DNA of 30,209 nucleotides. Origin: a virus (taxonomy: Duplodnaviria > Caudoviricetes). Position numbers and translations under genes: made by a program. The stretch is taken from IMG/VR virus record IMGVR_UViG_3300008255_000351, positions 1 to 30,209 of that record, one strand, 5' to 3'. The notes beneath the pieces were generated by a model. That model saw only the letters and a list, made by a program, of their open reading frames with translations. It had not been told where the DNA came from and did not search any database. Positions 8,795 to 29,802 of this stretch are shown piece by piece; within the stretch, counting starts at the first letter, position 1; the number at the start of each line of letters is the position of its first letter.

Positions 8795-8818
8795 ATATTA
8801 CCACACCAGTCCCGGACT
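8795..8818 (-). promoter_or_regulatory. operator plus extended -10 promoter
   Basis: Minus strand AGTCCGGGACTGG-TGTGG-TAATAT. Confidence 0.8.
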
Positions 8819-13968: not shown

Positions 13969-13992
13969 AGATTAGCACACCAGTCCCGGACT
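13969..13992 (-). promoter_or_regulatory. operator plus extended -10 promoter of the replication operon
   Basis: Minus strand AGTCCGGGACTGG-TGTGC-TAATCT. Confidence 0.8.
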
Positions 13993-15079: not shown

Positions 15080-15300
15080 ACCAGCACCTCGTCGAGGTAC
15101 ACCTCCCGGGTGACCTTCTCGCCGATCCCCGTGGGGAGGTCAGCGGTGATGGTCACCCAGTCATCGGTGCGCCGGTCGACAGTGATGTTCTGCAGCTCGA
15201 CCGGGGCGTAGTCGGCGATCAGCTCGCCGATGGCCGCCCTGACTTGCGGCGGGTGGGGCTCTGCGGTGACGGGCACCGCGGTGTGGAAGGACCGTCTCAT
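15076..15300 (-). CDS. hypothetical protein
   Basis: ATGA coupling; MRRSFHTAVPV... Confidence 0.6.
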   Translation of the reverse strand: MRRSFHTAVPVTAEPHPPQVRAAIGELIADYAPVELQNITVDRRTDDWVTITADLPTGIGEKVTREVYLDEVLV

Positions 15301-15521
15301 GACAGCACCCCCACGGGCGCGTGCTTCGAGCAGAACGCCTCCCCCGTGAACTCGCCCATGAAGACCCGGACGGTCGCGGGGGTGTCGTCGCACCACGGGC
15401 TGCAGCAGACGAAGTCGCGAGCCTCATTGCCGTTCGGTGTGGTTGGGAACCACTCCCGCTCGATGCCGTGCAGCTCGTCGGTCTCGTCACGACGAACGTC
15501 GTCGTCTGTGTCGAATGACAT
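15297..15521 (-). CDS. early-array hypothetical protein (Cys/His motif)
   Basis: GAGAGGAG SD; CCSPWC...FCSKH. Confidence 0.7.
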   Translation of the reverse strand: MSFDTDDDVRRDETDELHGIEREWFPTTPNGNEARDFVCCSPWCDDTPATVRVFMGEFTGEAFCSKHAPVGVLS

Positions 15522-15527
15522 TCTTGT

Positions 15528-15595
15528 ACTCCTCTCGGTTCAGCCCGGCGGTGTTGCCGGGCAGTGGGCCCCGAGCCCGTGAGGGCCCGAGGTCC
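15528..15595 (-). repeat. structured leader, copy A
   Basis: ggacctcgggcc-ctcacg-ggctcggggccc ACT gcccggc-aacacc-gccgggc tgaac CGAGAGGAGT. Confidence 0.85.
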
Positions 15596-15598
15596 CGG

Positions 15599-15877
15599 TC
15601 ATGACGTGGCGAGCGCGTCCTTGGCGAGCGCCTTGATCGCATCGAGCGGCCCACCGAGGTGGGACTCCTGCGTCCCTCCCCGGGACTCGTACTCGGACGC
15701 CGAGATGAGGGCGATCAGGTACTCGACCTCTTCGGAGTAGCCGTCCTCGGCAAGGACCCGCTTGTCCTCGTCGTAGATCTCGTCGTACATGGCGACGATG
15801 ATCGGGTCGACCTTCAGCGCCTCGGTGTAGGCGTCGCACTGCTCGGTCGTGTACTGGGGGATGTCGGCAATGGTCAT
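15599..15877 (-). CDS. early-array protein, paralog of 17044-17301
   Basis: MTIADIP...DPII...YESRGGTQESHLGGPLDAIKALAK. Confidence 0.75.
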   Translation of the reverse strand: MTIADIPQYTTEQCDAYTEALKVDPIIVAMYDEIYDEDKRVLAEDGYSEEVEYLIALISASEYESRGGTQESHLGGPLDAIKALAKDALATS

Positions 15878-15884
15878 GGTTGGT

Positions 15885-15955
15885 TCCTCTCTGTGAGACC
15901 TGGCGCTGTTGCCAGGAGTGGACTGGTCACACGTTAGCATGACCAGTCCGGGACT
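15885..15955 (-). repeat. structured leader, copy B, with an embedded operator and extended -10 promoter
   Basis: ggactggtcatg-ctaacg-tgtgaccagtcc ACT cctggc-aacagc-gccagg...GAGAGGA; contains AGTCCCGGACTGG and TGcTAACGT. Confidence 0.85.
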
Positions 15956-16254
15956 CAGTCGAGCACGCCGATGGCGACGAGGTTGAGGCGCTCGCGCTCG
16001 TCGAGGTCGCGCTCGTCGAAGTTGCCCAGGCCGTGGGCTTCGAGCGCCTCCCTGAGGCCTTGCCAGAGGGCGGACGTGGACAGGTTCCGGAGGTGGATCT
16101 TCTGCTCGTGATCGAGCCGGGTGTCCAGAAGCTGGTCGAGGTGACTGTGGCCGATACTCCCGGCGATCACCAGGACCGCCAGGGCCTCCTCGGGCGCCAG
16201 TTCGATCGTGATCGACTGGAGCACCGGCTTGGTGCTGTTGGCTGTGATGTTCAT
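15955..16254 (-). CDS. early-array hypothetical protein
   Basis: GAGAGGAG SD; MNITANSTKPVLQSITIEL... Confidence 0.75.
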   Translation of the reverse strand: MNITANSTKPVLQSITIELAPEEALAVLVIAGSIGHSHLDQLLDTRLDHEQKIHLRNLSTSALWQGLREALEAHGLGNFDERDLDERERLNLVAIGVLD

Positions 16255-16259
16255 TCTGT

Positions 16260-16327
16260 TCTCCTCTCAGGTGACCGGCGCGGTGTTGTGCCGGAGTGGG
16301 CGCCGAGCCCGTGAGGGCTCGACGTCC
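16260..16327 (-). repeat. structured leader, copy C
   Basis: ggacgtcgagcc-ctcacg-ggctcggcgccc ACT ccggc-acaacaccgc-gccgg tcacct GAGAGGAG. Confidence 0.85.
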
Positions 16328-16333
16328 TGGGTG

Positions 16334-16627
16334 CTACCACCAGGCGGGGAAGTGCCTGGGGTTGCCGTTGCGTTTGAACGCAACGAACAGTGGGCGGATC
16401 CGGTAGCGGCCGTTGCGGGGCTTGTCGTACACCTTCGCTCGGCGGGTCACGGTGAACGTGAAGCCCGGGATGTACGAGACCCACGCCCTGGTTCGCCACC
16501 AGGGGTCGTGAATCGAGTGGCCGTGCCAGGGCCAGTCGTAGGCCCGGTACCCGGCGCCCCGCTTGAACGGAACGAACCGGAACTGCCATCCAGGCCCGTG
16601 GGGGTTGCGATCCAATTTGATCTGCAC
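16334..16627 (-). CDS. early-array basic, aromatic-rich protein
   Basis: ACGAGAGGAG SD, GTG start. Confidence 0.7.
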   Translation of the reverse strand: MQIKLDRNPHGPGWQFRFVPFKRGAGYRAYDWPWHGHSIHDPWWRTRAWVSYIPGFTFTVTRRAKVYDKPRNGRYRIRPLFVAFKRNGNPRHFPAWW

Positions 16628-16633
16628 TCTTGA

Positions 16634-16698
16634 TCTCCTCTCGTTGACCAGGCGGTAGTGCCTGGAGTGGACGCCGGACCCTCTCAGGTCCGGCGCCC
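16634..16698 (-). repeat. structured leader, copy D
   Basis: gggcgccggacc-tgagag-ggtccggcgtcc ACT ccaggc-actacc-gcctgg tca ACGAGAGGAG. Confidence 0.85.
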
Positions 16699-16766
16699 GG
16701 GTACTTGGGGGCTCTCCCCGTCAGCCGAGGAGAAGTAGGCGCCAGGGCCGAGCCCCCGATGCAGAA

Positions 16767-16970
16767 TCAGGCAGGCACGACCGTGATGCTCATGTCCACG
16801 GCATCCCCGTGCGGATCGATGACGTCCTCGGCGACCTTCAGGGCGCCTTCCAGGGTCACGAACCCCTGAACGGCATCGTCCAGGTAGAACGTCGGAAGGT
16901 CATGCCAGATGGCGTCCTCGGGGTAGCCCTGCATGCGCGCTACGCGCGCGCTGACAGCCCATAAGCTCAT
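16767..16970 (-). CDS. early-array hypothetical protein
   Basis: ACGAGAGGAG SD; MSLWAVSARV... Confidence 0.7.
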   Translation of the reverse strand: MSLWAVSARVARMQGYPEDAIWHDLPTFYLDDAVQGFVTLEGALKVAEDVIDPHGDAVDMSITVVPA

Positions 16971-16975
16971 TGTGA

Positions 16976-17039
16976 TCTCCTCTCGTGGTTGCAGCGGTGT
17001 TGCTGCAGTGGACCCGGTATCCCTTCGGATACCAGGCCC
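16976..17039 (-). repeat. structured leader, copy E
   Basis: gggcctggtatc-cgaagg-gataccgggtcc ACT gcagc-aacacc-gctgc aacc ACGAGAGGAG. Confidence 0.85.
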
Positions 17040-17043
17040 GGGG

Positions 17044-17301
17044 TCACGCGCTCTTTGCGAGCGCCTCCAGGGCCTCCAGGGGCCCGCCGATGTGGGTCGG
17101 GACCGTGCCGCCGCGACGGTTGTACTCGCGCAGGGCTGCGGTCATGAACCCGTATCGGTCCTCCAGTGTCCCGTCCGCCAGCTGGACCTGAATGGCCGCT
17201 GGCAGCTCCAGGAACAGGTCCTGGATGACTGGGTCGGCCTGTAGCAGCTTGCGGGTCTCCCCGTACTGCTCGGACTCGATGACGCCGATGTGGTTGCTCA
17301 T
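17044..17301 (-). CDS. early-array protein, paralog of 15599-15877
   Basis: MSNHIG...DPVI...YNRRGGTVPTHIGGPLEALEALAK. Confidence 0.75.
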   Translation of the reverse strand: MSNHIGVIESEQYGETRKLLQADPVIQDLFLELPAAIQVQLADGTLEDRYGFMTAALREYNRRGGTVPTHIGGPLEALEALAKSA

Positions 17302-17306
17302 GGTGT

Positions 17307-17372
17307 TCTCCTCTCGTGAACCGCACCGGGATGGTGCGGAGTGGACCCTCCCCGTGCGACCGGGAAGGATCC
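17307..17372 (-). repeat. structured leader, copy F
   Basis: ggatccttcccg-gtcgca-cggggagggtcc ACT ccgcacc-atccc-ggtgcgg ttc ACGAGAGGAG. Confidence 0.85.
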
Positions 17373-17379
17373 TGGGCTC

Positions 17380-17961
17380 TCACAGGCCCCAAGCGTCGAG
17401 CAGGGCTCGACCCACAGGGCCAGGGGTACGGACCACCTGACGGTCCGGGTACTTGCCCGCCACATGGGCTGCGGCGAGCTGGTAGACGGACTCGCAGAAC
17501 AGTGCGTCCCGGACCGCCTGGGAACCGATCCCGGCGGCCTGGGCCCTGAACAGCTCGACCTCGTCGTCAGCCGTGAAGCTGAGCCCGTGGTCGATGTGTG
17601 CCGTGTCGTGCCAGACCCTGAACCGCAGGTTGTCGTCCCGGCTGAACACCGGGTGGTCGTGCCACAGGTCAGAGACCTGCAGCTTCAGCGGGGTGACGAT
17701 CGACTCGTCGTAGGCCGTGACCATGGCCTCGAAGTCGACGTACGGCGTGTCGTCCTCGACCGCCTCCCAGACCGATGCACGGCCCAGGCACCAGACGAGG
17801 GTGACCCCGTCCTCGGTGATCGTCCTGGTGCGTTCTCCGACGTAGTCGGCGAGCGCCTCGGCGTTGGTCACCGACTCGATCCCCAGGTAGCCGTCCGCAG
17901 CCCCTCGCAGGGCCTTGTTGTACTCGGCGGCCAGGGCCTGCCATGTCGCGTTGCTGAGCAT
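17380..17961 (-). CDS. early-array protein with a putative metal-binding motif NxxFRxWHDxxH...E
   Basis: HPVFSRDDNLRFRVWHDTAHIDHGLSFTADDE. Confidence 0.75.
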   Translation of the reverse strand: MLSNATWQALAAEYNKALRGAADGYLGIESVTNAEALADYVGERTRTITEDGVTLVWCLGRASVWEAVEDDTPYVDFEAMVTAYDESIVTPLKLQVSDLWHDHPVFSRDDNLRFRVWHDTAHIDHGLSFTADDEVELFRAQAAGIGSQAVRDALFCESVYQLAAAHVAGKYPDRQVVRTPGPVGRALLDAWGL

Positions 17962-17967
17962 GATGTT

Positions 17968-18034
17968 TCTCCTCTCGTGGTAGCTGGCAGGGTTGCCAGC
18001 GGTGGGCGCCGAGCCCGTGAAGGGCTCGACGTCC
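17968..18034 (-). repeat. structured leader, copy G (7-nt loop, ACC linker)
   Basis: ggacgtcgagcc-cttcacg-ggctcggcgccc ACC gctggc-aaccct-gccagc tacc ACGAGAGGAG. Confidence 0.85.
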
Positions 18035-18042
18035 TGGGGTGT

Positions 18043-18318
18043 TCACCAGCCGTCGGCTTCCTCGATCCAGGGACCGAGGTGGTGGGCGTCAGCGATCGCC
18101 CAGGCCGGTGCGAACGCCGAGCCCCGGTAGGCCACCGAGGTGGGTAGCTCGATCGATCGATCGGGCTCGTCCTCGGCGTAGGCATCGATCGCAGCGATGC
18201 ACACCGGGACCATCGACGCCGGGACCGGCGGGTAGTGGTTGTGCTGGAGGTGCCACCGGATGGCGGTCTCCAGGTCCACGCCGGACTCGGCGATCTCTTG
18301 AGCGTGTAGTGCTCCCAT
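18043..18318 (-). CDS. early-array phage hypothetical protein (HLxxNHYPPVP...HHL)
   Basis: ACGAGAGGAG SD; WHLQHNHYPPVPASMVPVCIAAIDA...AHHL. Confidence 0.75.
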   Translation of the reverse strand: MGALHAQEIAESGVDLETAIRWHLQHNHYPPVPASMVPVCIAAIDAYAEDEPDRSIELPTSVAYRGSAFAPAWAIADAHHLGPWIEEADGW

Positions 18319-18325
18319 GATGGGT

Positions 18326-18390
18326 TCTCCTCTCGTGAAGCCAGCGGTAGTGCTGGCAGTGGACCGGCGAGCGGTGAAGCTCGCAGGCCC
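18326..18390 (-). repeat. structured leader, copy H
   Basis: gggcctgcgagc-ttcacc-gctcgccggtcc ACT gccagc-actacc-gctggc ttc ACGAGAGGAG. Confidence 0.85.
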
Positions 18391-18393
18391 TGG

Positions 18394-18666
18394 TCAGACC
18401 TTGCGGACCTTCCGGGCGACGACCTCGCAGCGGGACTGCGTGGCGCCAGCCACCCGGAAGAACCGGGTCGAGACCTTGCCCTCGACCCGCACTGACCGAC
18501 CGGCCTCGACCTTGAAGGTCGGGTGGTACCAGGCCACGGGGACCGTGTCCTGGGTTCCCTCGGGTGAGGTCGTGGTGACGTGGAACGTGGTCCACGGCTC
18601 GCCGCTCGGGCTCTCACGCCGTACGGCGTCGGCCACGACGAACCCCTCGATCCTGACGGTGTTCAT
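18394..18666 (-). CDS. ssb: short OB-fold SSB/PriB-like protein lacking the acidic tail
   Basis: MNTVRIEGFV...RESPSGEPWTTFHV...DTVPVAW...GRSVRVEGKVSTR...CEVVARKV. Confidence 0.75.
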   Translation of the reverse strand: MNTVRIEGFVVADAVRRESPSGEPWTTFHVTTTSPEGTQDTVPVAWYHPTFKVEAGRSVRVEGKVSTRFFRVAGATQSRCEVVARKVRKV

Positions 18667-18670
18667 GATG

Positions 18671-18735
18671 TCTCCTCTCGTTGGGCTCGCAGGGTTGCGA
18701 GCGGTGGGCCCGGAGCCCGTCAGGGCTCCAGGTCC
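18671..18735 (-). repeat. structured leader, copy I (ACC linker)
   Basis: ggacctggagcc-ctgacg-ggctccgggccc ACC gctcgc-aaccct-gcgagc cca ACGAGAGGAG. Confidence 0.85.
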
Positions 18736-18951
18736 TCAGTTCTCCATGACGACCGCCGAGTGCCGGTAGCCACCCAGGCGGGAGCCGCAGCCCTCGCACG
18801 GTGACCACGAGAACTCGCAGTCGTCGCCCGAGTCACTGCAGGTCACCGCCACGTAGCCCTCCACGAGCCCCAAGGGCTCGCAGTCGGTCTCGTCGGCCAG
18901 CTCCCCGTTGGCGGCGAGCATGGCGCAGTCGGTGCAGATCAGGATCTCCAC
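18736..18951 (-). CDS. early-array Cys-rich acidic protein
   Basis: GTG after ACGAGAGGAG; ICTDC...FSWSPCEGCGSRLGGYRH. Confidence 0.7.
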   Translation of the reverse strand: MEILICTDCAMLAANGELADETDCEPLGLVEGYVAVTCSDSGDDCEFSWSPCEGCGSRLGGYRHSAVVMEN

Positions 18952-18956
18952 TGTGT

Positions 18957-19021
18957 TCTCCTCTCGTGATGCCGGGCGGGGTGCCCGGAGTGCCAGCAGC
19001 ACCGGCGAAGGTGCTGCGGGC
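18957..19021 (-). repeat. structured leader, copy J
   Basis: gcccgcagcacc-ttcgcc-ggtgctgctggc ACT ccgggc-acccc-gcccgg catc ACGAGAGGAG. Confidence 0.85.
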
Positions 19022-19024
19022 GGG

Positions 19025-19195
19025 TCAGACGTAGTGCTCGGGCCAGTTCTCACGCCGGTACTCGGCGAGCGACTGGCCGTCGTCCGGGGTGGCCTCCCAG
19101 TCGAGCTTCGTGCACTCCCGGCACGGGCAGTACCACAGGGGCACCTCGGGCTGACCGTTCGAGCCGCTGTTGGCGATGCAGGCGATGACGTCCAT
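19025..19195 (-). CDS. early-array small Cys protein (56 aa; not in the ORF track)
   Basis: MDVIACIANSGSNGQPEVPLWYCPCRECTKLDWEATPDDGQSLAEYRRENWPEHYV* after ACGAGAGGAG. Confidence 0.7.
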   Translation of the reverse strand: MDVIACIANSGSNGQPEVPLWYCPCRECTKLDWEATPDDGQSLAEYRRENWPEHYV

Positions 19196-19200
19196 GGTGT

Positions 19201-19267
19201 TCTCCTCTCGTTGGGCTGCAGCTCGTGCTGCAGCAGTACCCGGCCCAGGTTCGATCCTGGGCTGGGT
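19201..19267 (-). repeat. structured leader, copy K
   Basis: acccagcccagg-atcgaa-cctgggccgggt ACT gctgcagc-acga-gctgcagc cca ACGAGAGGAG. Confidence 0.85.
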
Positions 19268-19273
19268 GGGGCG

Positions 19274-19546
19274 TCACCGGGTCGCCCTGTGCGCCTCCAG
19301 GGCGCCGTAGGCCTCGACCAGAGCCGAGATCAGGTCCGGGATGGCCTCCCGGTGCACGCTGATCCGGAGCTTCGACACGGTGTCGTCGATGGTCTCCGAT
19401 GCCGTGAGGTCAGCGAAGGCCACGCCGTCGGTCTCGACGGTGAAGCCCCAGCCCTCGCCCACGCCCATCGTGGCGGCCGAGTCGAACCGTCCGGTCCGGG
19501 CCACGCACGCCGGGACCGGCTGACGGGTGATGGTTGCAGTGCTCAT
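19274..19546 (-). CDS. first early-array protein, hypothetical
   Basis: AGAGGAG SD; MSTATITRQPVPAC... Confidence 0.7.
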   Translation of the reverse strand: MSTATITRQPVPACVARTGRFDSAATMGVGEGWGFTVETDGVAFADLTASETIDDTVSKLRISVHREAIPDLISALVEAYGALEAHRATR

Positions 19547-19550
19547 GATG

Positions 19551-19618
19551 TCTCCTCTGTTCGAGCAGCGCCACCGTGGCGCTGCAGTCGACCAGCAGCC
19601 CGTGAAGGCCACCGGTCG
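19551..19618 (-). repeat. structured leader, copy L
   Basis: cgaccggtggcc-ttcacg-ggctgctggtcg ACT gcagcgcc-acggt-ggcgctgc tcgaac AGAGGAG. Confidence 0.85.
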
Positions 19619-19619
19619 G

Positions 19620-19835
19620 TGAGAAGAGAGGAAGCCCCTCCAGCGTGGCTGGTTCGTCCGGGGCCCGATCGGTGCCAGCTCGGCGGCACCACGAGGGGCC
19701 GTGCTCTGCTGGTCCTGCCCACCAGGGCCGTCCCCCACGGGTGGGGCGCTGGTGGCGGTCGAGCGGCTCTTGAGCCCGGGCGCTGTCCCCGGGTGGGCTC
19801 TGGCCTCGGTGTCCTCGCTGGGTCGATCGGCCTGA
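19620..19835 (-). ncRNA. candidate structured 5' leader RNA of the early transcript
   Basis: No credible ORF; long-range pairing GGCCGAUCG/CGAUCGGGCC encloses several GC hairpins. Confidence 0.4.
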
Positions 19836-19839
19836 CACC

Positions 19840-19869
19840 AGTAGAAGCAGACCAGTCCTGGACTGTCAA
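19840..19869 (-). promoter_or_regulatory. probable early promoter with a perfect operator in the spacer
   Basis: TTGACA (19869-19864) overlapping the palindrome CAGTCCAGGACTG (19853-19865); -10 is non-consensus (TTCTAC/TCTACT). Confidence 0.65.
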
Positions 19870-20020
19870 GGGGTCTGACCAGGGATTATGCGAAATCTTT
19901 CCGGGACTGGTGCGCCACCAGGGCCAGGGCCAAGCCACCAGGTGCGCCCACCAGGGTGCTCGGAGAGCACTGCTCTCTACCCAGCCCCGTCCTGTCACTC
20001 GACCCGCTGGGTTGGATGCC

Positions 20021-20438: not shown

Positions 20439-20790
20439 GGGGGGACTACAGGGGGGCCCCAGGGTGAGCCGCACAGCGGCGGCTCACACCAGGTGAACCA
20501 GGGGCGGCGGAGCGCCAAGCGCAGCCGCCACCAGGATACCGGGCCAGGCCCGGGCACTCGGGAGGACTGTGTCCTCCCTCCAGTTGAGACTGGTCCGCCT
20601 CTCGGCGCGAAGCGGAGCTTCGCCCCTCCAGGCTCCAGGTCCAGGGGACCTGTGCCTCCGCGTCGCTCCGGCACTGGTCCGCTTCTCGGCCCGACCGAAG
20701 GGAGGACTGGGTACCTGGTGCGCGATGTACATCGCGCCCTGGACGACACCAGATGCGTTTCCCCGGTGCGCGCGCGGGGGTGTGTGTGCG

Positions 20791-22985: not shown

Positions 22986-24811
22986 TGGAGTACACGCCGA
23001 TCAACATCGACAACGTGCCGTCCATGCTGACGGCGTACACGGAGCGCTGGCGCGAGCGCGACGAGCGCATGGACATCATCGACGCGGCCGTGAAGGGTGA
23101 GTTCGGCCTGACCGACGAGTTCGGTGACTCGGTCGACAACAAGTCCCCGAACATGGTGCAGGTCGCCCTGGAGGACACCGCCGAGGCCGCCTCGATCGTG
23201 CCGTCGGTGCGCGTCACGCCCTCGCGCCAGTCGCTGAAGGACAAGGCCGCGGCGATGGAGCGCATGGGGTCCGCGTACCTCGACTTCTCGCAGATCGAGC
23301 TGCTCACGATCCGCTCGCTGATGGACCTGTGCGCCTACGGCCAGCTCTCGTGGGTGGTCGAGCTGGACGACGAGTCCGGCTCGCCGGTCATCAAGTGGCG
23401 CAACCCGCGGTTCTGCTACCAGGAGGCCGGGTGGCACACCATGGACTCCACCCGCAAGGCCCTGTTCGTGCGTCAGCTCTACGTGTCGCAGCTCCCGCTG
23501 GAGTGGCAGGTGAAGATCTACACCCACGTCGACAAGGACTTCCCGTCCCAGACGCCGGAATGGTGGGAGGACCAGGAGATCACGATCGTCGAGATCTTCA
23601 CCGAGAAGGAGATCGTGACGGCCGCGGTCTACCAGTCGACCTCGCGCACCGTCCCGTCCGCGTCGCGCCGCTCGTACATCCCGATCGAACTGGACCGCCG
23701 ACAGACCGCCGGTGGGATCTGCCCGGTGATCGTCGCCGAGCGCATCTCGCTCGACGGCCAGCCGCGCGGCCAGTTCGACCAGATCGTCCGGGTCATGGAA
23801 GGCCACATCCGGCTCCTGTCGACCCTCATGGACTACGCCGACCAGGCGGTCTACTCGGACGTCTGGGTGAAGGACCTGATCGGCACGATGCCGGTCGGTG
23901 GTGGCTCGTACATCCAGCTCGGCCCGCAGGGCGCCATCGGTCGTGTGCAGCCCGCGGTCTCGTCGCTGCAGGTGTTCGAAGAGCTGGACCGCCTCATGGA
24001 GGGCATGCACCTCGGTGGCCGCTGGCCGAAGGTCCGCCCGGGCGAGGTGTCGCAGTCGATCGCGTCCGCCAAGTTCATCGAGGCCTCGGCCGGGATGATG
24101 AACACGACCATCCGGACGCTGCACTTCATCATGAAGCGCGCGATCGAGCAGGCCCTCCGGGTGTGCTTCGTGGTCGACAAGGCGCAGGGCGCCGACCGCG
24201 CCGTGTCGGGGATCCTCCGCAACCAGCAGTTCATGATCGATCGCGACCGCGACGACATCGACCTGGAGGCCCGCGTGCGGGCCGAGTACGGCATGGGGCT
24301 CGGCCGTGAACCGGCCCAGGCGATGGTGCTCGGCATCCAGGCCCAGCAGGCCGGGCTCGTCTCGACCGAGTACGTGCAGGAGAATTTCGAGGGCATCCAG
24401 GACGTCGAGCTGGAGCGCCGCCGGATCGACGTGCAGGGCATGCGGGACATGGCGCTAGCGCGCCTCATGCAGGGCATGGAGACCGGCGAGGTCCCGATCT
24501 CGGCCCTCACGAAGATCGCGAAGGCCCGCATGAACGGCGACGACCTGTTCGACCTGTTCGACGAGTACATCGTGAAGCCGCAGGAGGAGATGCAGGACCA
24601 GCAGCTCACGAGCGGCATCGATGGTAGTGCCATGATGCCCGGCGCGGCGCCCGCCGGAATGCTTGGGGTGGCCCCGCCACCGGCCCCGCCCGCCGAGGAG
24701 CTACTCGGGGGCGGGCCGGGAGGCCCGCCGGAGTCGATCAGTAGGACTTCGGTCCCGATGGGTCAGGGCTCGTTCGCTGGCGTCCAGTCCCAGATGGGCG
24801 GTCCTGCCTAG
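22985..24811 (+). CDS. portal protein
   Basis: 608 aa directly after terL; helical character; GQPRGQFDQ segment; Pro/Gly-rich C-terminal tail. Confidence 0.8.
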   Translation: MEYTPINIDNVPSMLTAYTERWRERDERMDIIDAAVKGEFGLTDEFGDSVDNKSPNMVQVALEDTAEAASIVPSVRVTPSRQSLKDKAAAMERMGSAYLDFSQIELLTIRSLMDLCAYGQLSWVVELDDESGSPVIKWRNPRFCYQEAGWHTMDSTRKALFVRQLYVSQLPLEWQVKIYTHVDKDFPSQTPEWWEDQEITIVEIFTEKEIVTAAVYQSTSRTVPSASRRSYIPIELDRRQTAGGICPVIVAERISLDGQPRGQFDQIVRVMEGHIRLLSTLMDYADQAVYSDVWVKDLIGTMPVGGGSYIQLGPQGAIGRVQPAVSSLQVFEELDRLMEGMHLGGRWPKVRPGEVSQSIASAKFIEASAGMMNTTIRTLHFIMKRAIEQALRVCFVVDKAQGADRAVSGILRNQQFMIDRDRDDIDLEARVRAEYGMGLGREPAQAMVLGIQAQQAGLVSTEYVQENFEGIQDVELERRRIDVQGMRDMALARLMQGMETGEVPISALTKIAKARMNGDDLFDLFDEYIVKPQEEMQDQQLTSGIDGSAMMPGAAPAGMLGVAPPPAPPAEELLGGGPGGPPESISRTSVPMGQGSFAGVQSQMGGPA

Positions 24812-24833
24812 TCCGGGACTGGTGTGGTACACT
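24810..24833 (+). promoter_or_regulatory. operator plus extended -10 promoter of the sRNA/tRNA cluster
   Basis: AGTCCGGGACTGG-TGTGG-TACACT. Confidence 0.8.
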
Positions 24834-25031: not shown

Positions 25032-25098
25032 AAGGCCGTAGCTCAATGGCAGAGCGCCCGACGGGGAGATGCGGGTTCGAGTCCCGCCGACCTACCCA
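25032..25098 (+). ncRNA. tRNA-like RNA with a truncated anticodon arm (or tRNA pseudogene)
   Basis: TA-GCTC-AATGGCA-GAGC D arm; GCGGG-TTCGAGT-CCCGC T arm; NCCA at the expected register; anticodon arm only CCC-GACG-GGG. Confidence 0.7.
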
Positions 25099-25117: not shown

Positions 25118-25528
25118 ATGGAACCAGGACAGCCCGACGTGGTGAACCAGCTGCCCGCGACAGGGAACCCGATGGAGCCCCAGTCCGGGACCTACGGTCG
25201 TGTCGCCGACACCGATCGTCTCAAGCAGCAGCTCGATCTCCCCGGCGCCGGTCCTGGCGGTGCGGCCGTAAAGCCGACACCCCCGCCTCCCGGCATGCCG
25301 CAGGGCACCCAGATCACGCCACCCCCGGGTGGCGTGCCGGACGTCCTGATGAAGCCCACCTCCCGGCCGGACGTTCCGGCCTCGACCCCGTTGCAGGGGA
25401 CCGAGCCCCCGCCGTCGCAGACCGTCCAGAACCACATCGCTGCCCTGGAGGCGCTGCTGAACTCGCCCACGACCTCGCAGACCACGAAGCGTTGGGCTGA
25501 GACGGTCCTGGAGCGGTACCGCTCGTGA
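25118..25528 (+). CDS. Pro-rich hypothetical protein (possibly virion-associated)
   Basis: GGGGGTG SD; GTGA coupling to the next gene. Confidence 0.7.
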   Translation: MEPGQPDVVNQLPATGNPMEPQSGTYGRVADTDRLKQQLDLPGAGPGGAAVKPTPPPPGMPQGTQITPPPGGVPDVLMKPTSRPDVPASTPLQGTEPPPSQTVQNHIAALEALLNSPTTSQTTKRWAETVLERYRS

Positions 25529-28500
25529 CTGACTTCCTCGACTCGGCGTTCGAGGCGGTCGGCCGGGCGGCGAAGCCGCTCGCCCCGGCCATCGACTTCC
25601 TCGCCCCGACCAGTACCGGCCAGGGCGGCCAGGAGCTGTCGATCGGGAACCTGATCAACTCGGTCGGCCGCGGCATCCAGAATACGGTCGACGAGGGTCT
25701 CGTCGGGCTCGGGGCGGCCGCGTACAACGCGGCCACGATGCGCGGCATGTCGGCCCGCGACCGGCTCCTACTGGGCGGCATGGCGCTCGCCGGTGGGGCC
25801 ATGTCGGCCCGTGCGATCCACTCCGGGTGGAAGGCCAACCAGCCGGTCCGGATGCACGCCCGCACGATGCGCGCGCCGCTGGGCGAGGTCCCGGGCGGGT
25901 ACCCGCAGCTGACCGAAGGGCTCGGTGACCCGCACCGGTTCATCGACATCACCGCAGAGGCGCAGGACCTGGCGTTCCAGCGCCCAGGCATCAACCGCAA
26001 GCAGGCGCAGATCCTGGCGTCCGACGACGGGTTCGGTGTGGCTCGCGGGTTCGCTGCGTTCGACCCGGCCGACGAGGTGAAGCTCGCGTCCGCGGCCGGA
26101 CTGTTCGAGACCTACGCGGCCCGCGCCCCGGAGGGTGCCCGCGGCGCCCAGGTCGACTGGGCCCGGTTCTCGTACGCCATGGACACCGGCAAGGTGCGCG
26201 GTACGCCCGGCAACGCCAAGGTGAAGAAGCTCTGGAAGGCGGTGACCGAGACCCCTGAGGACGTCACCATGGAGCAGGCCGAGGAGCTGTTCGGCTACAT
26301 CCAGATGATCGGTGACCGCACCGACGGCATCACCGCGGACGACCTCTCGATCGGGCTCGCTGGCCGGGTCGAGCACATCGACTTCGTCGATGACGACGTC
26401 CGGTTCTTCGTGTCGCACCCGGTCGGGTGGAACGACGGCCAGTCGGTCGACCCGTACATCCGCGCGAAGCGCCTCCAGCAGCTCAACATCCGCCAGCTCG
26501 CTGACCGCGGCCACCGGATGATCCGGCAGCTGTTCGACATCGGCGACCAGCAGTACAAGCTCTTCCAGGAGACCGGCCAGACGGACCTGCCGAAGGGCAT
26601 GCACCTCGGTCGGGACTGGTACCCGGTCGCGCTCGACGACACGAAGAAGGCGTTCGGTGTCGACGACGGCGACGGACTGAACCGTGCGGTCGCGGCGGTC
26701 TCGTTCCTCTCGGAGGCCGAGGACTGGTCGACGAACGTGTACAAGGCGCGCCGGATCCTCGATCTGGCGGGCGACGTGTCGGACGAGGACTTCCAGGCCT
26801 GGCTGCGCGACGGCGTCACGCCGGACGCCTACGACTCGAAGGTCGCTCGGCACAAGTACACGGGCAAGCTCGCAAAGGAGCACAACCGCCGGTTCCATGA
26901 GATCTGGGACACCGTCAAGAACGGGCCTCCGGGGGAGCGCGGCTTCAAGGTCGACGAGAGGACCATGAAGAAGGTCCTTCGGCTCTACGGGGGCGTGGAG
27001 CCCGTCGATGACGTGTTCCGCTCGACGAAGGCCCGCAAGCAGAAGAACTTCTACCTGAACATCCGGTACCCGGACGGCGAGTGGCCCGTCACGATCGACC
27101 GGCACGCCTACGACGCGTTCTACGGCATGGACGCCGGGATCCAGGACCGTCCGATCGACTCAGCGATCGGCGACGGGGACCAGGCGTACGACGTGATCGC
27201 CGACACGTACCGGGCGGTCGCTCGTGAGCTGGCCGAGGAGTCCGGCGAGCAGGTCCTCCCGCACCAGGTGCAGGCCGTGGTGTGGGAGGTCTGGCGCATC
27301 CTGAAGGGCACGCAGGGCCGGGACGGCTGGGGCGCACGCTTGAACGGCGCGAGCACGCCCACCCCGTTCATGATGACGCTCCCGGACGAGGTCTCGAACC
27401 CCGTGTTCGACGCGCTCATGGGCAAGTCCGGCCTCACCGGTGCGCTCGGCCAGGACCTGTCGGGCCCGGTGCCGGTGACGCTCCTCGAAGCGTCCGACGT
27501 GAAGGGCCTGTCCGCGGTCTCGGTCGGCGACGACTACGTCGTGCTCGCCGACATGGACGACAAGGTCGCTGCCTCGGTCCGCACGAAGACCCCGGGCGTG
27601 ATCGGCACCGACCGCATCGCGCGCTGGGTCGACTCTGAGCCCCTCAAGGTGAGGTCGCTGGACGAGTTCGTCGCGACCGCCACCGAGGACGTCCACTGGA
27701 TGGAGACCACGCTCGCGTCGGACCACGTCGGTGGCGTGCACCCGGCGCTCCGGCCGGAGGACACGATCGTCGCGTACCTCGACGAGGGCGCCAAGGTGAA
27801 GACCCCTACTGGTGTCAAGGCCCGTCGCGCTGGCCGCGCCGCGGTCGACACGCAGGACCTGTCGTACGAGCGCCTCGGACCGGACGACATCGACCCGAAG
27901 AAGTGGCGGGGGAACGACTCGCCGCTCAACACGCACGCCTGGGCGGCGGTCTCGGCCGAGCTGACGCCCGAGCAGGTGAGCGCGTTCGGCGTACAGGGCC
28001 ACGACAACGTGGCCGCCACGAACCAGCTCCGCGCCGAGCTGCAGCGGCGGGGCTACAAGCCGATCGATCAGGAGGGGTTCTACGGGTCTGAGACCCCGGA
28101 GGTCTCGTTCCTGGTGTTCGGGATCTCGCCGCGCGAGGCGCGCGAGATCGGTGAGATGTTCCACCAGGACTCGGTGATCACGAACGACGGGTTCCTGTAC
28201 AACCGGAACGCCACGAACGACCCGGCCGACCTCGGCCGCCGTCGGGCCGCCCAGGGTCTGGAGCTGGATCCGCCGCAGGACCCGAGCCTCCCGCCCACGG
28301 AGTACTTCCGGTCGGAGCTGGTGATCGGCGGCAGGCGCCTGAAGTGGCGTCAGGACCTCGACTGGGACAACACCGAGGACGTCGCTGACGAGCTGATCGA
28401 TCAGCGCAAGACCTTGAACCGCGAGCGCGTCGAGATCGCGATCCCGCCCGGCCGGGACATCCACGAGCTGGTGTCCGACCTCGAAGGGCGCGGGTTCCGT

Positions 28501-29802
28501 GACGTCTCGGTCTACACGAACCGAGACCAGGTACCCGGGTTCGACCGGGCATACGAACGAGTCGTGACCGACGGGGCGGCCGTCACCGTCATCCGCACCG
28601 CTGATGGTGCGATCTCGGACCCTCACGGCTCGCACGTCTTTGTCCGGTCGAACTCTGGCCTCCCGAAGCGGGCGAAGAAGCCGCCCGCACCGGGCTGGCA
28701 GGACACCGGCGAAGGCGTGGCGATCGCGGGGAACACCCTCCTGGTCGACGGCCGGTTCCCGAGCGGCAACGTCGAGTTCACGGGCCCGTTCCAGGCGAAG
28801 CTGAACGGCCAGTCCCCGATCGCGTGGGGCTACGTGGACAACACCTTGACCCCGATCTTCGACGAGCTGGAGCTGAACTCCGGCCGGTTCCAGGCCACGA
28901 TCAGGGGCGACAAGATCACCCCGGCCGACGAGATGGACGTCACGGGCGCGATCCGCGCGCACCAGGCGCTCCGCGACGCCGGGTACCCGCAGGCGGTGCT
29001 CTCGAACGACAAGGGCAACGTCAAGAAGATGAAGCTCCAGACCTCGGAGGGGACGTTCTCGTTCGGCGAGGAGAAGGCCACGACAGCGTCCTCGGAGGTC
29101 GTCACGACCCGCAACGGCCTGGCCGCGGTGCAGTGGCACAACGACCGCAAGGTCCCCCGGTTCGAGCGCCAGTACGGCATGTCGCTCGACATCGGCTGGC
29201 GCGCCGGTCGCGCGAACCACGCGCTCGACGGTGCCATGGTCGAGCAGCTGGAGCAGGGGACGGGGCTCGTGTTCAACGAGCACGAGGCCGTGATCCACCG
29301 GGCGCGTCTGGTCGGCATCACCACCGAGAACGTCAACAAGAAGGACCCGGCGTACGCGTACTTCCCGTTCGCTCCGGACCAGCGGATCGTCCTTACCCGC
29401 GAGTTCTGGGAGGACCAGGCCCGGTTCGAGCGCCAGCTCGCCGAGGACCGCCAGACCGGGTGGATGACGCCTCGCGTCGAGCCCACGGCCCGCAGCATCA
29501 TCGTGCACGAGCTGGGCCACGTCATGCACCTGTCGGCCCGCATGGGCGAGGGTATGGTCATCAACTCGCCCATGGAGCGCGAGATCTTCAAGCTCGTGGG
29601 TGGGGCTCGCCAGCTCAATAAGGTCGCCGGGCGTGAGATCTCGACGACCGCCGGTACGGAGATCTCCGAGTTGATCGCCGAGTCCGTGACCGAGGTCCTG
29701 CTCTCGGACCGCCCCTCCAAGCTCGCCAGGGACGTGTATGCTGTCCTCACTGACCACCTGGGCGAGTACATGAAGCACCACAACATGAGGCCCACAGCAT
29801 GA
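25525..29802 (+). CDS. large multidomain protein (1425 aa), probably virion-internal, with a C-terminal zincin metallopeptidase
   Basis: WY...LS....W..N...KNFY.NI...VTIDRHA...Y...A...QVQAVVW domain; SAE...NQLRAEL..RGY...EGFYG..E.SFLV...FHQDSVI domain (DUF3293-like); VHELGHVMH...SELIAES. Confidence 0.75.
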   Translation: MTDFLDSAFEAVGRAAKPLAPAIDFLAPTSTGQGGQELSIGNLINSVGRGIQNTVDEGLVGLGAAAYNAATMRGMSARDRLLLGGMALAGGAMSARAIHSGWKANQPVRMHARTMRAPLGEVPGGYPQLTEGLGDPHRFIDITAEAQDLAFQRPGINRKQAQILASDDGFGVARGFAAFDPADEVKLASAAGLFETYAARAPEGARGAQVDWARFSYAMDTGKVRGTPGNAKVKKLWKAVTETPEDVTMEQAEELFGYIQMIGDRTDGITADDLSIGLAGRVEHIDFVDDDVRFFVSHPVGWNDGQSVDPYIRAKRLQQLNIRQLADRGHRMIRQLFDIGDQQYKLFQETGQTDLPKGMHLGRDWYPVALDDTKKAFGVDDGDGLNRAVAAVSFLSEAEDWSTNVYKARRILDLAGDVSDEDFQAWLRDGVTPDAYDSKVARHKYTGKLAKEHNRRFHEIWDTVKNGPPGERGFKVDERTMKKVLRLYGGVEPVDDVFRSTKARKQKNFYLNIRYPDGEWPVTIDRHAYDAFYGMDAGIQDRPIDSAIGDGDQAYDVIADTYRAVARELAEESGEQVLPHQVQAVVWEVWRILKGTQGRDGWGARLNGASTPTPFMMTLPDEVSNPVFDALMGKSGLTGALGQDLSGPVPVTLLEASDVKGLSAVSVGDDYVVLADMDDKVAASVRTKTPGVIGTDRIARWVDSEPLKVRSLDEFVATATEDVHWMETTLASDHVGGVHPALRPEDTIVAYLDEGAKVKTPTGVKARRAGRAAVDTQDLSYERLGPDDIDPKKWRGNDSPLNTHAWAAVSAELTPEQVSAFGVQGHDNVAATNQLRAELQRRGYKPIDQEGFYGSETPEVSFLVFGISPREAREIGEMFHQDSVITNDGFLYNRNATNDPADLGRRRAAQGLELDPPQDPSLPPTEYFRSELVIGGRRLKWRQDLDWDNTEDVADELIDQRKTLNRERVEIAIPPGRDIHELVSDLEGRGFRDVSVYTNRDQVPGFDRAYERVVTDGAAVTVIRTADGAISDPHGSHVFVRSNSGLPKRAKKPPAPGWQDTGEGVAIAGNTLLVDGRFPSGNVEFTGPFQAKLNGQSPIAWGYVDNTLTPIFDELELNSGRFQATIRGDKITPADEMDVTGAIRAHQALRDAGYPQAVLSNDKGNVKKMKLQTSEGTFSFGEEKATTASSEVVTTRNGLAAVQWHNDRKVPRFERQYGMSLDIGWRAGRANHALDGAMVEQLEQGTGLVFNEHEAVIHRARLVGITTENVNKKDPAYAYFPFAPDQRIVLTREFWEDQARFERQLAEDRQTGWMTPRVEPTARSIIVHELGHVMHLSARMGEGMVINSPMEREIFKLVGGARQLNKVAGREISTTAGTEISELIAESVTEVLLSDRPSKLARDVYAVLTDHLGEYMKHHNMRPTA

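Follow-up and report, generated by a model that had tools for sequence, protein, structure and literature searches.

Leaders that recur before one gene after another raise the question of what they do to the message that carries them. We examined this question in a 30,209-nt stretch of DNA (the window) from an uncultured actinobacterial-type phage (IMG/VR record IMGVR_UViG_3300008255_000351), in which 12 minus-strand leaders were found, one before each of 12 consecutive small genes. Each leader runs 5' to 3' through a 12-bp hairpin (hairpin 1), the trinucleotide ACY, a second hairpin (hairpin 2) and a Shine-Dalgarno sequence (SD), with a fixed length of 69-74 nt from the first nucleotide of hairpin 1 (+1) to the start codon. 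We consider it somewhat better than an even bet that hairpin 1 and its A-C form a reduced tRNA mimic for the host RNase P, splitting the transcript gene by gene. If so, one long phage message would be cut into single-gene pieces by the host's tRNA-trimming enzyme.

The leader array and its genes

The array (15297..19546, minus strand) comprises 12 genes of 56-193 aa with GC3 of 0.84-0.96, each with its own leader. Because it adjoins replication genes and lies opposite the terminase, it likely consists of early genes. It is headed by a promoter-like site (19840..19869, minus strand) with a perfect -35 hexamer, which overlaps a repeated palindrome (19852-19864), and a weak -10. A similar start was noted in the related locus L014, and the site is termed a putative promoter because a consensus scan did not find it. 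A tyrosine integrase is also encoded in the window.

All 12 copies that an earlier note had placed on the minus strand were recovered at those positions. Leader 1 (19547..19618) comprises hairpin 1 (19618-19589, the first coordinate being +1 here and in all following copies), ACT (19588-19586), hairpin 2 and an SD (19558-19552), ahead of a 90-aa gene (19546-19274). The same parts, with ACT, were found in leader 2 (19196..19267; hairpin 1, 19267-19238) before a 56-aa gene (19195-19025) and in leader 3 (18952..19021; hairpin 1, 19021-18992) before a 71-aa phrog_3034 gene (18951-18736). Leader 4 (18667..18735; hairpin 1, 18735-18706; ACC) directly abuts the upstream stop codon, and its gene (18666-18394) encodes a 90-aa SSB-like protein (PF00436). 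Leader 5 (18319..18390; hairpin 1, 18390-18361, with G3-U70; ACT) precedes a 91-aa gene (18318-18043), and leader 6 (17962..18034; hairpin 1, 18034-18004, with a 7-nt loop; ACC) precedes a 193-aa phrog_7806 gene (17961-17380).

Further along the array are leader 7 (17302..17372; hairpin 1, 17372-17343; ACT), whose 85-aa phrog_2223 gene (17301-17044) has homologues in cluster A mycobacteriophages, and leader 8 (16971..17039; hairpin 1, 17039-17010, with G3-U70; ACT), followed by a 67-aa gene (16970-16767). The G3-U70 pair also occurs in leader 9 (16628..16698; hairpin 1, 16698-16669; ACT), the sole copy distant (68 nt) from the upstream stop, whose gene encodes 97 aa (16627-16334). The stem of leader 10 (16255..16327; hairpin 1, 16327-16298; ACT) is identical to that of leader 6, and a 99-aa gene follows (16254-15955). 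Leader 11 (15878..15949; hairpin 1, 15949-15920; ACT) has a variant SD, overlaps a copy of a repeated DNA palindrome (15943-15955) and precedes the array's second phrog_2223 paralogue (92 aa, 15877-15599). Leader 12 (15522..15595; hairpin 1, 15595-15566) carries the final ACT (15565-15563) and leads into a 74-aa gene (15521-15297), after which overlapping ORFs without leaders were noted.

Structure of hairpin 1 and its tRNA-like end

The leader descriptor matched 12 times in 15400-19900, whereas 200 dinucleotide shuffles gave 0.02 matches on average and never more than one; an additional weak match at 15314, with an 8-nt loop and no SD, lies inside a gene beyond that interval and was not counted. 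As the earlier note had claimed, the stem spans 12 positions in every copy (fully paired in five when G-U is counted as a pair, with a single mismatch in seven), +1 is G in ten copies, and the linker is invariant as ACT (n = 10) or ACC (n = 2). The alignment columns were just 62% alike, yet pairing was kept, with several pair types at most stem positions. Among the 144 stem positions there were 16 G-U, 5 A-C and 2 other mismatches, and the excess of G-U over A-C favors a fold in the minus-strand RNA. A G-C or C-G pair stands at position 1 in 11 copies and at position 2 in all 12, and pair 3 is weak in ten. Since a 13th pair could be closed by eye in eight copies, the invariant feature is the span from +1 to the A (30 nt in 11 copies, 31 nt once).

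Equivalents of A73 and C74 are present in all 12 leaders and were each predicted to be 93% unpaired on average, whereas C75 is present in just two and CCA follows hairpin 1 in none. The base at -1 never pairs with A73, and it is never the preferred U. The 1:72 pair was predicted to be weak in context in three copies (probability 0.00, 0.26 and 0.57). It was noted that the loops (6 nt in 11 copies, 7 nt in one) did not bear out the T-loop likeness proposed earlier. None matches the canonical 7-nt T-loop UUCRANY, and the consensus N-U(10/12)-C(8/12)-R(12/12)-C(9/12)-G(8/12) mostly lacks an A58 equivalent, leaving T-loop remnants.

Elements in the same slot of related phages

We scanned 120 terminase-selected loci with a descriptor that left the loop and the 3' sequence free. 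Of 42 SD-linked matches, 39 had a T-loop and ended in ACG or ACT, while an AC ending was seen in just 4 of 29 matches without an SD; the loci are redundant and mutually related, so these counts are not independent events. The same slot was occupied by armless tRNAs with true T-loops, a full tRNA, mimics of the tmRNA tRNA domain, or type II hammerheads. In L050, a full ARAGORN tRNA was followed by ACC, a hairpin and an SD. Rfam tmRNA matches of 77-81 nt were found in 4 of 10 loci scanned, and three of them end in ACT ahead of an SD within an array. The linker and T-loop covaried in all 48 elements, GG occurring with UC in 29 and AG with GC in 19, and both classes were found together in 26 of 52 loci. 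This covariation would correspond to the tRNA elbow contacts G18-U55 or A18-G55 and G19-C56.

Type II hammerheads (n = 29, in 6 of 122 sources) were all on the minus strand and SD-linked, and six in one locus (L124) exceeded the Rfam RF02276 gathering score. Their cut falls between two hairpins and thus corresponds to the ACY linker rather than to +1. Homologues of the gene at 17961 are preceded by a hammerhead in L050 and L097, while a homologue of the gene at 16970 is preceded in L014 by a T-loop-bearing tRNA mimic, ACT and hairpin 2. Hammerhead-type and tRNA-type phages were interleaved in a quick terminase tree. The window leaders contain no hammerhead core.

These same-slot elements support the tRNA-mimic reading of the window leaders, and with tRNA or tmRNA mimics and hammerheads interchanging there, the slot is likely a cutting site. 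That the plain hairpin is homologous to the T-loop mimics is argued from shared position and layout and from the co-occurrence of both forms in L014, not from an alignment. The proposal of tRNA mimicry and mRNA cutting is therefore much better supported than from the window sequence alone, although the true T-loops belong to the relatives. The 3' strand is 11 nt in 61 of 69 relative elements, most of which have an 11-bp stack with ACG, and 39 of the 69 begin with C at +1, so neither the 12-bp RNase P ruler nor G+1 is family-wide. CCA was found in none of these 69 elements, and hairpin 2 is missing in some relatives.

RNase P as the best-fitting enzyme

Given the fuller mimics and hammerheads in the same gaps, the leaders likely let the host RNase P cut the long message. 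RNase P was the best-fitting enzyme because A73-C74 is invariant and -1 never pairs with A73, and because C74 and long 5' leaders both hinder the RNase Z of Bacillus subtilis. Pairing of the leader with RCCA is described as an RNase P antideterminant (PMC10731613), and G at position 74 is reported to lower B. subtilis RNase P activity more than 100-fold (PMC1874595). Cytidines after the discriminator are described as suppressing RNase Z (PMC7479834), and its impairment by long 5' leaders places RNase P before RNase Z in the B. subtilis account (PMC1874595). Retention of A73-C74 with avoidance of CCA is consistent with an initial cut by RNase P, after which RNase Z may act.

The array would be transcribed as a single message from a site near 19860. 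RNase P would pair A73-C74 with its own L15 GGU and cut 5' of +1, so that the downstream mRNA begins in a G-C stem. If the host's RNase Z is functional, a further cut after A73 may release the minihelix, in which case hairpin 2 would cap the 5' end of the mRNA, as in mitochondrial tRNA punctuation. With no D-loop linker and little of the T-loop remaining, the window version would resemble C4 RNA or pre-4.5S RNA, hairpin substrates that lack a T-loop. Against RNase P stand the loops that are not T-loops, the lack of U-1, the scarcity of C75 and the weak 1:72 pair in three copies; in model hairpins, T-loop replacement is reported to lower efficiency and shift the cut by one base (PMC11143913). 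Also against it, the 12-bp ruler and G+1 do not hold across the family, a cut at +1 would give the upstream mRNA no 3' hairpin, and the hammerhead cut in this slot matches the ACY linker instead.

A host clue came from the relative L160, one binned contig with 45% terminase identity, which sits in an Acidimicrobiales bin that may not represent the window's host lineage. In that bin, C74 was kept in 26 of 26 tRNA genes read, and CCA was encoded in only 11. Of 26 genomes from the order, 25 yielded an RNase P RNA, and the L15 GGU was present in all 12 RNase P RNAs read.

Alternative explanations

It is unlikely, in our assessment, that a host nuclease, RNase Z or some other, cuts the mimic solely at its 3' side, within the ACY linker. 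Hairpin 1 would then cap the upstream mRNA, which matches both its position 0-8 nt past the stop in 10 of 11 gaps and the layout of the relatives' hammerheads, and the downstream mRNA would begin two bases before hairpin 2. The RNase Z-blocking CCA is missing from all 12 window copies and all 69 relative elements, and plant mitochondrial mRNA 5' ends at t-elements and acceptor-like stem-loops are attributed to RNase Z, with experimental evidence for cox1 and as a hypothesis for the others (PMC1920247). However, a Z-only route leaves the retention of the suppressing C74 unexplained, and the impairment of the B. subtilis enzyme by long 5' leaders (PMC1874595) and the lack of hairpin 2 in some relatives also count against it. 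Of the 41 genomes sampled, 18 carry RNase Z-like genes, but full-length TIGR02651-type matches in only 7, none above the cut-off. The short NF000806-type genes skip model positions ~150-198, the tRNA-binding arm.

It also appears improbable that the leaders stay uncut within an intact polycistron, where they would insulate or bind a factor (RNase P, the ribosome or a phage protein, for example) and thereby hold the SD accessible or hinder decay. The fixed distance to the start codon and the drift of the window loops from T-loops agree with this, and the tRNA elbow is read by many factors other than nucleases. Yet self-cutting ribozymes stand in for the leader before homologous genes, insulation does not call for an A-C that is always present and unpaired where the stem ends at a fixed point, and the SD was predicted to be just 52% unpaired on average.

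We regard cutting at the base of hairpin 1 by RNase III or a phage-encoded nuclease as very unlikely. The reported minimal Escherichia coli RNase III substrate is an 11-bp helix with a tetraloop (PMC1540722), pair 3 is weak, and internal-loop or long imperfect stems occupy the slot in L121, L143, L078 and Streptomyces phage Immanuel3. Nevertheless, G-C or C-G beside the scissile bond suppresses RNase III cleavage, as pairs 1 and 2 would, and neither T-loops nor an elbow is needed for it; a Pfam scan of 36 ORFs of this partial genome, most of them unassigned, returned no RNase family. That the repeats act mainly as DNA, as gene-shuffling recombination/excision cassettes resembling T4-type PeSL elements or as attenuating terminators, is highly improbable: one repeat per gene, an identical stem in two copies, the phrog_2223 paralogues and the integrase would suit cassettes, but the low column identity with retained pairing, the coding-strand excess of G-U over A-C (16 vs 5) and the tertiary-type covariation in relatives point to RNA, and no leader has a U-tract, while the stretch from hairpin 2 to the SD is too short to hold a promoter.

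Comparison with known systems

No description of such a twelve-leader tRNA-mimic arrangement was found in the literature searched. The SAS/ESAS and intergenic inverted repeats of actinobacteriophage clusters K, EF and EG similarly combine a conserved repeat, a strong SD and small genes; the passages on SAS/ESAS in PMC7302621 treat them as sequence motifs of unknown role and do not mention a tRNA-like fold. In plant mitochondrial t-elements and mitochondrial tRNA punctuation, RNase P, RNase Z or both likewise recognise mRNA ends marked by acceptor-like stem-loops and degenerate tRNA-like folds (PMC1920247). As described there, the mitochondrial enzymes are protein-only, the elements scattered and the mRNA ends mapped, whereas the window leaders, known from sequence, form a standard repeated cassette in a bacteriophage and would be read by a host ribozyme.

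The likeness to T7 early-mRNA processing proposed earlier would lie in host nuclease sites between early genes. In T7, RNase III acts on long stems interrupted by an internal loop, and the upstream mRNA retains a 3' hairpin after the cut. The window has a short G-C-closed hairpin with tRNA-type ends, and an RNase P cut at +1, 0-8 nt past the stop in 10 of 11 gaps, would leave the upstream mRNA without a 3' hairpin.

P4 CI RNA is a non-tRNA RNase P substrate. Others described for the bacterial enzyme include acceptor/T-arm model hairpins, the phage RNAs C4 and M3, pre-4.5S RNA and the hisCD hairpin (PMC10731613, PMC11143913), the hisCD cut being proposed to stabilise part of a polycistron. The hairpin substrates described share with the window a stem of ~12 bp, G+1 and a 3' A-C able to pair with the L15 GGU, and C4 and 4.5S RNAs also lack a T-loop. 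In these accounts each substrate is a lone site or a small RNA that carries RCC(A), whereas the window has 12 copies punctuating one operon, with CCA avoided, U-1 absent, and hairpin 2 and the SD at a fixed distance. The clustered hammerheads of prophage polycistrons (RF02276; Perreault et al. 2011, PMC3088659) are, as described, also a cutting device before genes. Compared with these, the window leaders, having no hammerhead core, would need a host enzyme, and an RNase P cut would fall before the hairpins rather than between them.

Leaders of the twelve-gene array

On the minus strand of the window, between positions 15522 and 19618, 12 leaders were identified, one ahead of each of 12 consecutive genes (56-193 aa, GC3 0.84-0.96). 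Each consists of a first hairpin, an ACY linker (A73, C74 and Y75 in tRNA numbering), a second hairpin and a Shine-Dalgarno (SD) sequence. The stem of hairpin 1 spans 12 positions in every copy; pairing is complete in 5 copies, and the other 7 each contain a single mismatch. The loop is 6 nt in 11 copies and 7 nt in one. The linker is ACT in 10 copies and ACC in 2, and the first stem base (+1) is G in 10/12; these counts agree with those of the earlier note. A73-C74 is present in 12/12 and predicted to be unpaired, with C75 in 2/12 and CCA in 0/12. Hairpin 2 has 5-9 bp and an A/C-rich loop followed by a short spacer and the SD, and the distance from +1 to the start codon is 69-74 nt.

The 12 observed leaders compare with a mean of 0.02 in shuffles. 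The stems of the leader strand contain 16 G-U pairs versus 5 A-C mismatches, and several pair types occur at most positions of hairpin 1; pairs were counted by script because some stems are out of register when the 12 copies are aligned with MAFFT. The window leaders are a real, strongly selected RNA element, and the 12-gene array they punctuate is presumably co-transcribed early in infection.

The most fitting interpretation of the leaders is a tRNA mimic in reduced form that would serve as an mRNA processing signal. The likeness to T-loops claimed for several hairpin-1 loops is weak: the loop N-U-C-R-C-G retains the U55-C56-R57 portion, but it falls short of a T-loop by one base and lacks A58 in most copies. 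No tRNA cloverleaf with D and anticodon arms was found in the array by ARAGORN or Rfam; Rfam at E values up to 10 returned only chance hits there, and lowering the ARAGORN threshold produced little but noise. It was noted separately that pair 3 of hairpin 1 is G-U in 3, A-C in 4 and A-U in 3 of the 12 copies, a pattern which we take to recall the G3-U70 identity of alanine tRNA and tmRNA. Pair 6 is non-Watson-Crick in 7/12 copies and marks the junction at which relatives insert a linker.

tRNA mimics in related phage loci

We examined 120 related loci, including L014, which were chosen from the terminase alignment and many of which are redundant. Between 1 and 8 mimic elements per locus were found in 25 of them, on the minus strand and upstream of the terminase. 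Their plan comprises an acceptor strand, a short linker, a T-stem with a 7-nt T-loop, the acceptor again and ACG or ACT; in most cases a second hairpin follows, and then a spacer and the SD. When loop and 3' bases were left free, the scan recovered 42 distinct SD-linked hits, 39 of which had a T-loop plus ACG or ACT; among hits of the same scan without an SD, only 4/29 had an AC start. A wider scan of 162 loci returned 75 distinct elements in 60 loci, with an A-C end in 69 and CCA in none, figures that are biased on T-loop and ACG because a T-loop-like motif was required and 42 of the loci had been fetched by an ACG-containing pattern.

Among 48 short-linker elements, which are not 48 independent events because the sequences are related, linker GG accompanied loop UC in 29 and AG accompanied GC in 19, with 0 exceptions. 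Each class included 8-10 different linkers, and both classes were found together in 26/52 loci. We read this covariation as reflecting putative elbow contacts, G18-U55 or A18-G55 together with G19-C56. The span from loop to A was 11 nt in 61/69 elements of relatives, compared to the 12-bp stem of the window, and +1 was C in 39/69 and G in 28/69; both the 11-nt span and C+1 count against the strict length ruler that the earlier note had invoked for RNase P.

Larger and smaller forms were also encountered. Locus L050 carries a full tRNA followed by ACC, a hairpin and an SD, while four loci gave 77-81-nt Rfam tmRNA hits, three of which end in ACT ahead of an SD within an array. The tmRNA-scoring RNAs lie at L052 887-967, L106 3702-3782 and L144 3883-3959 on the minus strand and at L143 3389-3469 on the plus strand; they hold the tRNA-like domain only, with an ACT end and G3-U70 by eye, as mini-tmRNA mimics. 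In L014, forms with a T-loop share the locus with a plain hairpin of 12 bp followed by ACT, and single plain-hairpin copies with ACT were found in L014 and L085. The bare window hairpin may be homologous to the tRNA mimics of relatives.

A second plain-minihelix array was not found in closer phages, where terminase homologues at 63-86% identity had little or no flanking DNA. When viral sequences were scanned with a pattern built on the spacing of the window leaders, 13 hits were returned, 0 of which had the structure. Among 9 hits to a T-arm pattern, the one relevant hit was L038, which is the same contig as L014, and the others lay among tRNA genes of unrelated phages. Within the loci that were scanned, Rfam did not match the armless mini-tRNA. 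It was also noted that window 25032-25095 (plus) holds a tRNA-like element that has a D-arm and T-loop but lacks a proper loop for an anticodon; Rfam scores it as tRNA at 42.3 bits, whereas ARAGORN does not report it. It lies directly after tRNA-Met, has an ACC end and is ahead of the ORF at 25118. A similar cassette, with a T-loop, may thus be represented by this element in a rightward operon.

Hammerheads in the leader position

Across 122 sources, type II hammerheads were found in the same position in L050 (6), L150 (5), L148 (1), L149 (1), and L097 and L124 (8 each, in loci of nearly the same sequence). All scanned hammerheads were on the minus strand and SD-linked, and one further example was recognized by eye in L047. 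The Rfam model RF02276 placed six in L124 above its gathering threshold and three in L050 below it. The hammerhead core (CUGANGA, GAAA and an NUH site) occurred 0 times in the window; CTGANGA matches at 18739 and 17570 lacked a matching core.

Homologues in related loci were available for only 3/12 array genes, and among these two same-gene swaps were observed. In L050 and L097, a hammerhead stands ahead of the homologue of window gene 17961 (identity about 40%); in L014, the homologue of window gene 16970 is preceded by a T-loop mimic. Neither device was present in the stretch inspected for the homologues in L045, L049 and L121. In a quick terminase tree without bootstrap, the window adjoins L047 and L014, and the two devices are interleaved. 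Tandem prophage hammerheads are reported to cut polycistronic RNA in vitro (PMC3088659). Because hammerheads occupy the slot in relatives, we infer that the slot upstream of each gene is a cutting site. The gene-for-gene interchange of mimic and hammerhead would further imply that both set the 5' end of each early mRNA.

A third repeated cassette was also seen in this slot, composed of a stem with a small internal loop, a short hairpin and an SD, at about 7450-4670 in L121, 1740-390 in L143 and 2370-480 in L078 (all minus). It had no Rfam match in these loci and may be a target for a nuclease or a ribozyme of an unknown type.

Candidate processing enzymes

Host RNase P is, on a somewhat better than even judgement, the likeliest first cutter of the window leaders. 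The enzyme would cut 5' of +1, after which RNase Z may excise the minihelix, and the remaining hairpin would shield the mRNA from RNase E/J. The invariant A73-C74, predicted to be unpaired, favours RNase P; with B. subtilis RNase P, a G in position 74 is reported to reduce activity >100-fold (PMC1874595). RNase P is placed ahead of RNase Z because long leaders impair B. subtilis RNase Z, according to PMC1874595. Excision in this order would explain the kept C74 and the missing CCA together.

Real tRNA genes of the phage family have C74 in 7/7 and CCA in 0/7, and those of Streptomyces phage Immanuel3 have C74 in 22/22 and CCA in 4. The only host clue is relative L160 (terminase identity 45%), which sits in a bin titled Acidimicrobiales (G001), a placement that could be a binning error; tRNA genes of this bin have C74 in 26/26 and CCA in 11/26. 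Since C74 is kept and CCA often absent in real tRNA genes of the group, ACY would be how tRNA genes end there. RNase P RNA was found in 25/26 genomes of the order of G001, and the L15 loop, with which the earlier note had paired ACY, reads GGU in 12/12 of the RNAs read from this order, partly by eye.

Pairing of the leader with the A73 region is described as an RNase P antideterminant (PMC10731613). In the window, -1:73 pairing occurs in 0/12 copies and -2:74 pairing in 1/12, and the sequence upstream of +1 is predicted to be 70% unpaired on average, with low values in 2 copies. U at -1, the base that RNase P prefers there, occurs in 0/12 copies (C 6, A 5, G 1), and the 7-nt T-loop and elbow for the RNase P S-domain are absent from window loops and present in relatives; the absent T-loop and U-1 count against RNase P. 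The T-loop is reported as dispensable for cleavage of C4 or 4.5S RNA (PMC10731613), and in model hairpins without one, RNase P cleavage is weaker and its site is shifted (PMC11143913).

A cut at +1 would end the upstream mRNA 0-8 nt past its stop in 10/11 gaps, without a 3' hairpin, which speaks for a cut confined to the ACY linker by RNase Z or another nuclease, as do the hammerheads of the slot, which cut between their two hairpins at the linker position. CCA is also strictly avoided (0/12 window leaders, 0/69 relatives). However, C74 is present in 12/12, and a cytidine after the discriminator is reported to suppress RNase Z (PMC7479834); moreover, the leader 5' of the mimic would be the whole upstream gene unless RNase P cut first. 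A linker-only cut is considered unlikely. RNase Z-like genes were recorded in 18/41 genomes of unstated completeness (TIGR02651 full-length below cut-off in 7, NF000806 in 16, both in 5); the 41 include G038, marked unpublished, and the RNase Z-like ORFs inspected leave out L210.

Cleavage by RNase III at the stem base is less probable still. Hairpin 1, with 12-13 bp, has the at least 11 bp to the loop of the minimal E. coli RNase III substrate (PMC1540722), but the elbow of the relatives' mimics does not fit this enzyme. Pairs 1 and 2 are moreover G-C/C-G in 11/12 and 12/12 copies, which is reported to suppress E. coli RNase III cleavage next door, assuming a stem-base cut.

Even with RNase P followed by RNase Z, the upstream mRNA would have an unprotected 3' end, so the gain is probably a defined, hairpin-protected 5' end. 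In T7, RNase III processing yields stable single-gene mRNAs; the gain shared here is probably not of that sense, to which the earlier note had likened the leaders.

Intrinsic terminators were rejected as the main explanation, with 0/12 copies flagged with a U-tract; actinobacterial terminators can lack U-tracts. Hammerhead half-sites and DNA att sites were likewise rejected as main explanations of the window leaders. Mobile DNA cassettes of the PeSL type carry a promoter in each repeat and form excised circles, and a promoter-like palindrome overlaps only 1/12 window leaders. This repeated palindrome lies at 8806-8818, 13980-13992, 15943-15955 and 19852-19864 (minus) and 24810-24822 (plus), with 10 matches at ≤1 mismatch versus 0.42 expected; some sites contribute two of these matches, one per strand. 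By eye, most copies stand just upstream of extended -10-like hexamers, and one overlaps leader 11; it is likely a phage promoter or operator motif.

Novelty and related systems

Taken as a whole, we entertain, at slightly less than even confidence, an actinobacterial phage family with bacterial tRNA punctuation, in which a standard cassette ahead of each early gene would be excised by RNase P of the host and a subsequent 3' nuclease, and would be interchangeable gene for gene with hammerheads. If true, the cassettes would form a series of full tRNA, tmRNA tRNA-domain mimics, an uncatalogued armless mini-tRNA with an elbow switch (G18-U55 / A18-G55) and a bare minihelix. Few natural sites have been mapped for RNase P in bacterial mRNA processing, and the window would offer a dozen natural candidates in one operon; together with about 70 distinct relatives, from full tRNA to bare hairpin, they make up a graded set on which the requirements of the enzyme could be tested. 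The hammerhead swap is also relevant to the question of why ribozyme arrays occur in phages, since the function common to both devices is likely to set early mRNA 5' ends. The leader cassette is also a possible compact, host-processed insulator for polycistronic constructs.

No description of gene-by-gene tRNA mimics in phages was found in the literature searched, which was mostly outside subscription journals. Thousands of viral candidate RNAs are reported in PMC10690425, the supplements of which could include the mini-tRNA motif, and start-associated repeats are described in PMC7302621 with no tRNA-like fold. Among known systems, those nearest to the leaders are t-elements, which are tRNA-like signals for mRNA processing (PMC1920247), hairpins that are natural substrates of RNase P, and hammerhead clusters of prophages.

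Genomic setting

The window is a 30-kb partial phage record with a GC content of roughly 67%. Its minus strand encodes a tyrosine integrase, dNMP kinase, polymerase exonuclease, primase, helicase and exonuclease, and the terminase gene starts at 20569 on the plus strand. No DNA match was found among GenBank phages, and locus searches with the exonuclease alone or the 193-aa protein alone found nothing. Homologues of one array protein occur in cluster A mycobacteriophages, and in the cluster A stretches L029 and L030 the genes homologous to those of the window are tightly packed.

The nearest cultured terminases, at about 30% identity, belong to Streptomyces phages such as Immanuel3. At 38500-44700 (minus) of Immanuel3 (L031), a conserved SD and long hairpins with imperfect pairing precede each of the right-end genes, so that this cultured phage may have a fourth type of processing device. 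Window 25525-29802 (plus) encodes a protein of 1425 aa that matches DUF7178 and DUF3293, in a position like that of the large gene 9 of Immanuel3. Five terminase homologues (P0011, P0023, P0070, P0076 and P0083) likely carry inteins, given their length of about 950-970 aa and PF14528 in four of them.
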